Shown in pieces: positions 53,934 to 56,900 of a stretch of DNA of 64,000 nucleotides (position 1 is its first letter; each line of letters begins with the position of its first letter). The notes beneath the pieces are model-generated. The model worked only from the letters and a program-made list of their open reading frames with translations. It was not told where the DNA came from and did not search any database. A program made the position numbers and the translations under genes. The DNA is from Squalus acanthias. Its lineage: Eukaryota. The DNA is taken from the NCBI GenBank assembly GCA_030390025.1, contig CM059431.1, positions 133,302,001 through 133,366,000 of the forward strand. The letters are read 5' to 3'.

Positions 53934-56900
53934 GGTGGGACCTATACAAGTCGGATGGGTTGCACCTGAACCGGAACGGGACCAACATCCTTGCGGGGAG
54001 GTTTACTAGTGCTGTTGGGGGGGGTTTAAACTAACTTGGCAGGGGGATGGGCTACGGAGTGGAGCTATAGTAGGGGGTGATGCACAGTCAAATATAGAGG
54101 AAAAAACAAGTCAGTCTGGAAGGCAGAGCAAATATGTAATGGCACAAAGGAGTATGGCAAGGCTGGATGGCATTTATTTTAATGCAAGGAGTCTTGCGAG
54201 TAAGGCAGATGAATTGAAGGTGTTGATGAACACATGGGAGTATGATATTGTTGCGATCACAGAGACATGGTTGAGGGAGGGGCAGGACTGGCTGGCAGCT
54301 CAATATTCCGGGGTATAGAATCTTCAGGCGAGACAGAGGGGGGTGTAAAAGAGGAGGGGGTGTTGCAATATTAATCAAGGAGTCAATTACTGCAGTAAGG
54401 AGGGATGATATCTTCGCAGGTTCCTCTAATGAGGCCATATGGGTAGAACTTAAAAACAAAAAGGGGGCAAGCACTTCGCTGGGAGTGTACTATAGGCCCC
54501 CAAACAGTCAGGGGGAGATAGAGGAACAGATATGTAGGCAAATCTCAGAGAAGTGTAGAAATAATAGGGTAATAATAGTAGGGGATTTCAACTTCCCCAA
54601 TATTAACTGGGATAGTCAGAGTGTGAAAGGCTTAGAGGGTGCGGAATTCTTAAAGTGCATCCAGGAGAGCTTTTTGAGCCAGCATGTAGAAAGTCCTACA
54701 AGAGAGGGGGCGGTACTGGACCTAATTCTAGGGAATGTAGCCGGGCAAGTGGTAGAAGTGTCAGTAGGAGAGCATTTTGGTGACAGTGACCATAATTTGG
54801 TGAGATTTAAGGTAGTCATGGAAAAGGACAAAGATGGACCGGAAATAAAGGTTCTAAATTGGGGGAAGGCCGATTTTAATATGATAAGGCAGGATCTGGC
54901 CAAAGTGGACTGGGATCAGCTACTTGTAGGAAAATCCACATCAGAACAGTGGGAGTCTTTCAGAAAGGAAACAGAGAGAGTACAACGCGAACATGTTCCC
55001 GTAAAGGTCAAGGGTGGGACCAACAAGCCCAGGGAACCCTGGATGTCAAGGGATATACAAGAATGGATTAGGAAAAAAAGGGAGGCTTTTGGCAGATACA
55101 AATACTAAAAACAGTGGAATCCCGAGAGGAGTATAGAAAGTGCAGGGGAGTACTTAAAAAAAGATATTAGGAGAGCGAAGAGGGGGCATGAAAAAACACT
55201 GGCGGGCAAAATAAAAGAAAATTCCAAGGTGTTTTATAAGTATATTAAGGACAAGAAGATAACCAGGGAAAGAGTAGGGCCCATTAGGGACCAAAGTGGT
55301 AATCTGTATGTAGAGCCGGAAGATGTAGGTGAGGTTTTAAATGATTATTTTGCATCTGTGTTCACTATGGAGAAGGACGATGTAGGCATAGAAATCAGGC
55401 AGGGGGATTGAGATATACTTGAACAAATTAGTATCGAGAGGGAGGAGGTACTAGCGGTTTTAGCGGGCTTAAAAGTGGATAAATCCCCAGGCCCAGACGA
55501 GATGTATCCCAGGCTGCTGTGTGAGGCAAGGGAGGAGATTGCAGGGGCTCTGACACAAATTTTCAGATCCTCTCTGGCCACAGGGGAGGTGCCAGAGGAC
55601 TGGAGGACAGCTAACATAGTACCATTATTCAAGAAGGGTAGTAGGGATAAACCAGGGAATTACAGGCCAGTGAGCCCAACTTCAGTGGTAGGGAAATTAT
55701 TGGAAAAAATTCTGGAGGGACAGAATTAGTCTCCACTTGGAGAGGCAAGGATTAATCAAGGATAGTCAGCATGGCTTTGTCAGGGGGAGATCATGTCTGA
55801 CCAATTTGATTGAATTTTGAGAGGGGGTGACTCGGTGCGTGGATGAGGGTAGTGCAGTTGATGTAGTCTACATGGACTTCAGTAAGGCTTTTGACAAAGT
55901 CCCGCATGGGAGACTGGTCAAGAAGGTAAGAGCCCATGGGATCCAGGGCAATTTGGCACATTGGATCCAAAATTGGTTTAGTGGCAGGAGGCAGAGGGTG
56001 ATGGTCGAAGGTTGTTTTTGTGACTGGAAGCCTGTGTCCAGTGGTGTACCGCAGAGATCGTTGCTGGGTCCTTTTCTGTTTGTAGTGTACATTAATGATT
56101 TAGATGTGAATGTAGGAGGTATGATCAGTAAGTTTGCAGATGACACAAAAATTGGTGGAGTAGTAAATAGTGAGGAGGGAAGCCTCAGGCTACACGACGA
56201 TATAGACGGCTTGGTCAGATGGGCAGAACAGTGGCAAATGGAATTTAACCCTGAAAAGTGTGAGGTGATGCATTTTGGGAGGACTAACAAGGCAAGGGAA
56301 TGCACAACAGCCCAGAAATTGATCTCGCTCTGTTCCCGCGGGGGTAAGGCTTCCCCGCGATCTCTCACTCCGCTTGTGCTTTTTCAGATCCAGCTCGCAC
56401 GAACTTGATGTTCCAGACATCAGCCGGGCAGTGCTTGCGTATCCCAGCGGCGTAGTGAATTCGTGCGAGCTGTGGGATCACGTGACTCAGTTAGAGCCAA
56501 TGGCAGCACACCATCTTCCATTCATAAGTTTCACATACGTGCTGTGAAATCTATGAATCTTACACCCCCCCAAAATAACAGCTAAACCTCAATTAAATTT
56601 AAAAAAAACCATCACATTAATAAAATAAGTATAGTTAATTAAATTAACCATTTTAAATAAAAAATTAAATTTTTGAAAAAATTTAAAATCTTTTAAAAAG
56701 TTATAAAAATAAACTTACCTGTCTTTAAAGTCTCTAAAAAAGATATACCTGTTAAAAAAAATTCAAAAAAATACTTAATTCACTACTTACCTTCTTAAAA
56801 GTGGGTCTTACTCCTCCTTTTTCCATTTCTAAAATCTTCCGTACTTACCTGCGCGTCCAAAGCATGAAGTGCACAGCGTGCGCGCAGCCTGTAGCGCGCA

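Follow-up and report, generated by a model that had tools for sequence, protein, structure and literature searches.

The window analysed here is a stretch of 64,000 nucleotides (nt) of the Squalus acanthias genome (assembly GCA_030390025.1, contig CM059431.1, positions 133,302,001 to 133,366,000 of the forward strand), and all coordinates are counted from its first letter. Much of the window is filled by CR1, a long interspersed nuclear element (LINE). Two CR1 copies, copy 1 near position 2,362 and copy 2 near position 54,025, retain the junction between the two open reading frames of the element (ORF1 and ORF2). Judging from the sequence, the CR1 junction probably (probability about 0.7) carries a programmed -1 ribosomal frameshift signal that would give an ORF1-ORF2 fusion. 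The features of copy 2, and the corresponding site of copy 1, are as follows.

53742..53937, plus strand: duplicated internal ORF2 piece at the 5' end of copy 2, chimeric, boundary approximate
53936..54034, plus strand: 3' end of ORF1, C-terminus of the SGNH esterase, DGLHL to Leu-Asn-stop, from translation
54025..54031, plus strand: slippery heptamer U_UUA_AAC (X_XXY_YYZ), from sequence
54032..54034, plus strand: ORF1 stop codon adjoining the heptamer, from sequence
54035..54162, plus strand: linker, open in the -1 frame, with in-frame ATGs at 54139 and 54154
54042..54046, plus strand: run of five G at +11 to +15 past the heptamer, candidate core of a 3' stimulator
54049..54051, plus strand: second G tract at +18 to +20, end of the block common to related subfamilies
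54047, 54080 and 54134, plus strand: ATGs of the ORF1 frame in the copy 2 linker
54163..57705, plus strand: decayed ORF2 with apurinic/apyrimidinic endonuclease (APE) as well as reverse transcriptase (RT), from Pfam and tblastn
2362..2383, plus strand: junction of copy 1, with the heptamer at 2362-2368, TAG at 2369-2371 and five G at 2379-2383

The 3' end of CR1 LINEs consists of short tandem repeats without poly(A); copy 1 ends in (CTATGTAT) repeats and copy 2 in a degenerate CTATGACT unit. Pfam families PF03372, PF14529 and PF00078 were found in copy 1, whose ORF2 has 737 open codons; its first methionine comes only around residue 261, where the endonuclease match to Pfam ends. A G homopolymer just past the RT motif FADDT (4490-4505) holds a single frame break, and apart from it this ORF2 is intact. 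In copy 2, PF14529/PF03372 match over 54275-55105, and the RT was shown by tblastn. Copy 2 retains just about 100 nt of ORF1, a remnant too short to give a Pfam match, and the C-terminal pattern of the remnant (DGLHL to Leu-Asn) is that of ray and shark ORF1 proteins bearing PF13472. The nearest named proteins to the window elements belong to sharks and rays, and the window ORF2s share 35-42% identity with bird-type ORF2s. Vertebrate esterase-type CR1 constitutes CR1 subgroup 7, with ORF1 of type IVB (PMC4120745; this and the other papers are cited for the portions of their text that were searched). The window elements resemble it by an ORF1 ending in an esterase, an ORF2 with APE and RT and short 3' tandem repeats, and they appear to fit this type.

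As the initial annotation had described for copy 2, ORF1 ends in the heptamer TTTAAAC (54025-54031) with an adjoining TAA (54032-54034), TGGCAGGGGG follows at 54037-54046, and the -1 frame is free of stops from the heptamer into YFNARSLASKADEL; the two in-frame ATGs mentioned there were located at 54139 and 54154. Copy 1 has TTTAAAC at 2362-2368, TAG at 2369-2371 and TGGCAGGGGG at 2374-2383, and its -1 frame is likewise open into the endonuclease. The gap of 5 nt between the heptamer and TGGCAGGGGG was found again in both copies. The second CR1 had been called divergent, and the two copies are indeed deeply diverged: their ORF2s share 44-59% amino-acid identity, with 33% (of 73) and 27% (of 33) of four-fold degenerate sites identical. 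Exact TGGCAGGGGG occurs twice in the window, once per junction. When one mismatch is allowed, the 11 matches compare with an expectation of 7.3, so that information comes only from the two exact matches at their fixed place. Exact runs of at least 10 nt between the copies occur three times in 624 aligned ORF2 codons; a conserved peptide (W-Q-G here) can therefore alone give an identity of 10 nt.

The junction was also found outside the window. A metagenome scan was anchored on the endonuclease and hence blind to the junction, and the best 80 of 151 confirmed loci were kept. Nine of them, in which an ORF1 end is joined to the endonuclease and which resemble named bird proteins, were used; the remaining loci, judged by eye, were 5'-truncated or belonged to other LINE types without such an ORF1 end. 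Together with copies 1 and 2 these bird-type loci make up a set of 11 junctions, extended to 12 by the fragment L117 described below. TTTAAAC is intact in seven of the nine bird-type loci (L056 has TTTAAAT and L047 TGCAAAC), a stop directly follows the heptamer position in eight, and the endonuclease is in -1 phase in eight, which becomes 10 of 11 when copies 1 and 2 are counted in. The linker is open without stops in 9 of 11 junctions and has six different lengths (about 36, 50, 51, 53, 63 and 75 codons); constant phase over six lengths would have a chance of about (1/3)^6 if the phase were free. The initial annotation held that dependence of ORF2 on downstream AUGs would refute its proposal, and such AUGs proved not to be general, since no methionine precedes the endonuclease motif in 6 of 10 in-phase copies. 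In locus L001, ORF1 spans 447 codons, and the frame of ORF2 stays open for 634 codons, up to where the contig stops. TTA makes up 10% of the leucine codons in these elements, and four-fold sites are saturated (22-33% identical) among copies 1 and 2, L001 and L004, the four elements checked. The junction is conserved between shark-type and bird-type CR1s, and the slippery-site architecture, first noticed in the shark copies, is present in other subfamilies.

A pattern search anchored on ORF1 gave 41 matches, 40 of them apparently due to chance and one being L117, a distant CR1-like fragment with TTTAAAC and TAA. L117 comes from a prokaryote genome set, where 36 of 37 pattern matches were apparently chance ones. 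Viral contigs contained no CR1 endonuclease and four chance pattern matches, and plasmids and E. coli genomes gave no match to the junction pattern. CR1 ORF1 sequence in records labelled as bacteria or flatworm (L117, positions 1-257; proteins P0101, P0296 and P0334) most likely stems from vertebrate DNA that entered these assemblies. Loci L003 and L037 represent an unrelated LINE, in which, about 400 nt before the endonuclease match, an upstream ORF and the frame of the endonuclease overlap over more than 50 codons, likewise in -1 phase; no in-frame X_XXY_YYZ heptamer was found.

Among proteins found with a bird query (67 hits), 43 of the 44 that reach a natural end have Leu-Asn as the last residues of ORF1. 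This end was also present in 80 of 86 representatives whose sequence stops where the profile does (150 listed of 1074) and, with a ray query (73 hits), in 47 of the 48 in which DGLH lies 22-30 residues from the C-terminus. When pooled, 175 of 292 ORF1 proteins, many of the 292 being truncated, end in Leu-Asn, and the named members with this end come from turtles, a snake, an anole (lizard), frogs, rays, a skate and birds. The heptamer places a T at a third codon position, so the residue before Leu-Asn cannot be K, E, Q, M or W; it takes 12 forms and is never one of these five (0 of 175; 0 of 35 after dereplication). In gene models of crane, godwit and stingray the -1 frame is kept, reading FKL and then x-G-x-G.

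Close relatives of copy 2 were sought in four public sequencing runs aligned to 53930-54400, comprising two contig sets (4372 and 1360 records) and two raw-read runs (6 and 0 reads). The stretch 54022-54051 shows no difference of at least 5% among related contigs, against 14 such rows in the preceding 80 nt and 13 in the following 104 nt. In both contig sets, groups of contigs match through 54051/54052 and then run into unrelated sequence, which indicates that what other subfamilies have in common with copy 2 is the junction up to where the G-rich block ends. Upstream of 53931/53933, related contigs run into different, ORF1-like sequence. The ATG at 54139 is ACG in 74% and 69% of contig depth in the two sets, and a 4-nt insertion near 54288 is the sole indel listed among related contigs in the aligned region.

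It seems that -1 slippage is the best explanation for the junction, because the heptamer contains a rare Leu codon, the phase is fixed over changing linkers and an AUG is frequently absent. The majority of ribosomes would decode U_UUA_AAC, terminate at the next codon and release the ORF1 protein (ORF1p). In a minority, tRNA-Leu and tRNA-Asn would slip in tandem one base back; these ribosomes would pass the stop and translate the linker, the endonuclease and the reverse transcriptase as an ORF1p-ORF2p fusion. The adjoining stop may add a pause.

The downstream G-rich element had been defined in the initial annotation as TGGCAGGGGG placed 5 nt after the heptamer. A G-run at a fixed position does recur in other subfamilies, but the conserved unit is a different one: TGGCA at +6 to +10 occurs in the window copies only, these positions vary freely elsewhere, and TGGCAGGGGG as a conserved motif was rejected, since none of 10 loci from outside the window carries it. 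What the junctions have in common comprises the G-run at +11 to +15 and G(G/A)G at +18 to +20, the second tract being lost in copy 1. The conserved part starts at +11, which leaves a spacer of 10 nt, and the claim that the spacing is typical of stimulators was not supported in that form, since structured stimulators typically lie 5-8 nt downstream (PMC3919603). GGGGG occupies +11 to +15 in 8 of 12 junctions, G is found at +12 in all 12 and at +20 in 11; the exceptions to the run are GGGAG in L008 and L044, AGAGA in L047 and five G displaced to +9 to +13 in L117. As background, 0.5% of the positions in these elements are the start of a GGGGG, and GGG stands at +11 after none of 33 other slippery-type heptamers of the same elements.

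Third positions were compared in eight lineage representatives with the expectation from the elements' own codon usage. In -1 codons 4-9, 27 of 42 third positions are G against 16.7 expected (P 6.5e-4), and in control codons 10-29 the count is 35 of 103 against 38.6. Codons 6, 7 and 9, picked after looking, have G in 20 of 24 against 9.5 expected. In most junctions and in proteins P0011, P0012, P0021, P0294 and P0306 the -1 frame at the G-run reads x-G-[D/E/A/G]-G; the run thus spells x-Gly-x-Gly, and selection on the protein could explain part of the conservation. Calicivirus-type signals have an upstream UGGGA motif, and such a motif was rejected for CR1, as the matching Gly codon varies between loci.

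The G-run at +11 to +15, with G(G/A)G at +18 to +20, appears to be under selection at the nucleotide level. It is a putative 3' stimulator acting as RNA, a role given slightly less than even odds. The run may work without conserved Watson-Crick structure, either as a protein site just outside the mRNA entry channel or through a weak non-canonical G structure, and a bound protein is the more likely mode when compared with a quadruplex. The binder could be a host protein that recognises G-runs or ORF1p itself, and in the latter case the output of ORF2 would be self-regulating. The most far-reaching proposal, that esterase-type CR1s of jawed vertebrates have kept since the shark-bird split a -1 frameshift with an unstructured G-run read by a bound protein, is speculative and, taken as a whole, rather unlikely. 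The analysis of this window adds the reach beyond sharks and the corrected definition of the downstream element.

A number of observations weigh against a frameshift signal with a G-run stimulator. RNAalifold gave 0 consensus pairs over the junctions, z was below -2 in just 2 of 22 single-sequence folds, at unrelated places, and no long-range partner is shared at a homologous site, the best partners lying at unrelated places in eight elements, several of which are partial. In 4 of 12 junctions the G-run has decayed or moved, the heptamer is changed in L047 and L056, and L006 is without both the stop and the phase. Linker methionines occur in 4 of 10 in-phase copies (copy 2 subfamily, L001, L004 and L047). 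In the copy 2 subfamily, the ATG at 54154 is retained (changed in 12% of depth, in one run), has a strong context (A at -3, G at +4) and is located nine codons before the endonuclease Asn. The stretch 54156-54254 is equally free of variants, so 54022-54051 is not unique and was rejected as proof of selection. The eight lineages of the third-position test are partly dependent on one another; residues at -6, -7 and -9 are also seldom K, E, Q, M or W, which makes the test of the residue at -3 weak, and the profile behind the count of 80 of 86 itself ends in Leu-Asn.

Covariation and folding across CR1 subfamilies, a check proposed by the initial annotation, thus revealed no conserved structure. 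A conserved hairpin or covarying structure was rejected for lack of consensus pairs or of a shared hairpin, and a conserved long-range partner in the 3' untranslated region or elsewhere for lack of a recurring homologous site; Rfam gave no match in the window. The earlier remark was that no convincing pseudoknot is seen; no conserved hairpin or pair was found 5-9 nt downstream, in an analysis that included no dedicated pseudoknot predictor.

Among the other explanations, the one that survives best, while still unlikely, accepts frameshifting and assumes that the G-run is selected only as protein, namely as a Gly-x-Gly that caps the last helix of the esterase and forms a flexible hinge behind it in the fusion protein. 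Slip site and adjoining stop would then give a low slip rate without an RNA stimulator. The x-G-[D/E/A/G]-G reading, the lack of detected RNA structure, a G frequency that tracks codon periodicity and the G-rich sense strands of these elements (22-34%) are consistent with selection on the peptide. It leaves unexplained, however, the G enrichment of silent third positions, both unpicked and picked, across the different residues Q, K, L and S, and elsewhere in ORF2 the window copies share GGG at just 4 of 31 shared Gly positions.

Somewhat less probable is the synthesis of ORF2p as a separate protein by termination-reinitiation, with the heptamer, the stop and the G-run as a reinitiation or ribosome-tethering signal and a linker AUG used where present. 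ORF2 of SART1-type elements is translated by stop-start coupling. AUG-dependent reinitiation of the Zorro3 or SART1 type would call for an in-frame AUG that is kept between the stop of ORF1 and the endonuclease, and none was found in the CR1 junctions compared: the AUGs have no common position and are missing from 6 of 10 in-phase copies, and the first methionine of copy 1 lies at the end of the endonuclease domain. With its context and its retention in most of the subfamily, ATG 54154 is the best argument for reinitiation in the copy 2 subfamily, and the linker methionines of 4 of 10 copies also favour this mode; three ATGs of the ORF1 frame, however, precede the in-frame ATG in copy 2. As for other elements, Zorro3 requires the first ORF2 ATG (PMC1965478), and L1 ORF2 is thought to use AUG-independent initiation (PMC5009743). 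Reinitiation accounts neither for the exact fit of the heptamer to X_XXY_YYZ, with its rare Leu codon, nor for a -1 phase that stays fixed while the linker takes six lengths.

A specific form of the frameshift explanation, in which the stimulator is a two-tier RNA G-quadruplex formed by the G-tracts, is improbable. Quadruplexes can stimulate -1 frameshifting at U3A3C, an efficient test site, with an optimum spacer of 6-8 nt and three-G tracts (PMC3919603). The G4Hunter-type score of +6 to +25 exceeds the 96th percentile of the own element in 9 of 12 junctions, and ViennaRNA with quadruplexes enabled preferred one in 3 of 11 (copy 2, L008 and L044). Three-tier patterns, however, are present in 0 of 12 junctions, and two-tier patterns in just 4 of 12, the nearly intact copy 1 not being among them. 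By the quadruplex prediction that the initial annotation had suggested, such a fold can be drawn in some copies only.

Conservation of the junction for a non-translational reason (Leu-Asn as protein, or a signal for RNA packaging or reverse transcription), with an incidental likeness to a slip site, is very improbable: copies 1 and 2, L007 and L048 are 5'-truncated near the junction and GTTTAAAC in copy 2 is palindromic, but the phase, the open linker and the absence of AUG stay unexplained, and the choice of Leu and Asn codons is fixed beyond protein need.

Coronavirus 1a/1b frameshifting uses U_UUA_AAC. Canonical -1 frameshifting at this site shares with the CR1 junction an identical heptamer and a downstream ORF in -1 phase, but includes a hairpin or pseudoknot 5-8 nt downstream, whereas the CR1 junction is without a conserved one and has a stop adjoining the heptamer. 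A parallel to the G-run is found in the nsp2 -2/-1 frameshifting of PRRSV, the virus of the porcine reproductive and respiratory syndrome, where the CCCANCUCC motif is bound by nsp1beta and PCBP; this C-rich motif is unstructured, located 11 nt downstream and works through the bound proteins (PMC7939443, PMC5009743). The CR1 G-run is likewise short, structure-free, of low complexity and about 11 nt past the slippery site. In contrast to PRRSV, the CR1 motif is G-rich, the site is U_UUA_AAC with a stop, and a trans-acting protein is hypothetical.

As for other retroelements, TRE5-A and TRE3-A of Dictyostelium, APE-type elements without long terminal repeats, are said to need a -1 frameshift for ORF2, with no slip site or stimulator described in the searched text (PMC5911963); they belong to another clade and kingdom than CR1. 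Frameshifting has also been stated or suggested for Paramecium elements (PMC5405496). Mammalian L1 resembles CR1 in having a bicistronic LINE RNA and an ORF2 that need not depend on an AUG, but its ORFs are parted by a spacer, and initiation is favoured over slippage (PMC5009743). Frameshifting is not mentioned for CR1 in the searched text of PMC4120745, PMC3905857, PMC11303007, PMC2817409, PMC11835228, PMC4255032 and PMC5408684, and the searched portion of a 2016 review of frameshifting has no occurrence of 'CR1'. CR1 frameshifting was thus not found described in the literature searched, a search to which older CR1 papers and Repbase entries were external.

Copy 2 has a complex structure. Directly upstream of its ORF1 remnant, 53742-53937 is 89.8% identical to the internal ORF2 part 54947-55142, and this duplicate joins the remnant across a few shared bases; a template switch during insertion is possibly behind the chimeric 5' end. 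Truncation at the 5' side within about 100 nt of the junction was seen in copies 1 and 2, L007 (about 2380) and L048 (about 2405), a biased sample. The decay of ORF2 in copy 2 shows in stops, the 4-nt insertion near 54288, a break of the frame at about 55700 and a 740-bp insertion (56310-57049). With terminal inverted repeats of 19 nt (95%) and three palindromes inside, this last insertion, which occurs once in the window, resembles a non-autonomous DNA transposon.

A fragment of a different LINE family, 52848-53741, borders copy 2 on the upstream side and has copies of 85-89% at 12181-12874, 46797-46890, 48907-49572 and 57791-57993. A 248-codon open frame at 826-1572 gives a weak GIY-YIG match (E 5e-4, below the Pfam cut-off) and is probably a fragment of a Penelope-type endonuclease inserted in an older CR1. 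Two purine-rich tandem arrays with extreme GC and AT skew, 59883-60587 (22-bp unit, 31 times) and 61112-63308 (16-bp unit, 136 times), are read on the minus strand without a stop over as many as 964 codons, and these frames have no Pfam match.

Among the repeat families of chicken, CR1 ranks first in abundance (PMC2817409), and the translation of LINE ORF2 is usually explained from L1, i.e. by reinitiation. If the frameshift reading is true and CR1 makes a -1 slip like that of retroviruses, the CR1 enzyme would be an esterase-endonuclease-RT fusion and not a free ORF2p, which would alter the view of particle assembly. The annotation of CR1 ORF2 would also change, as gene callers start ORF2 at internal methionines. 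A stimulator consisting of a structure-free G-run would enlarge the small class of non-structured frameshift signals. In that case a junction of about 30 nt would hold a conserved recoding signal in an animal LINE and a G-rich counterpart of the C-rich motif of PRRSV.

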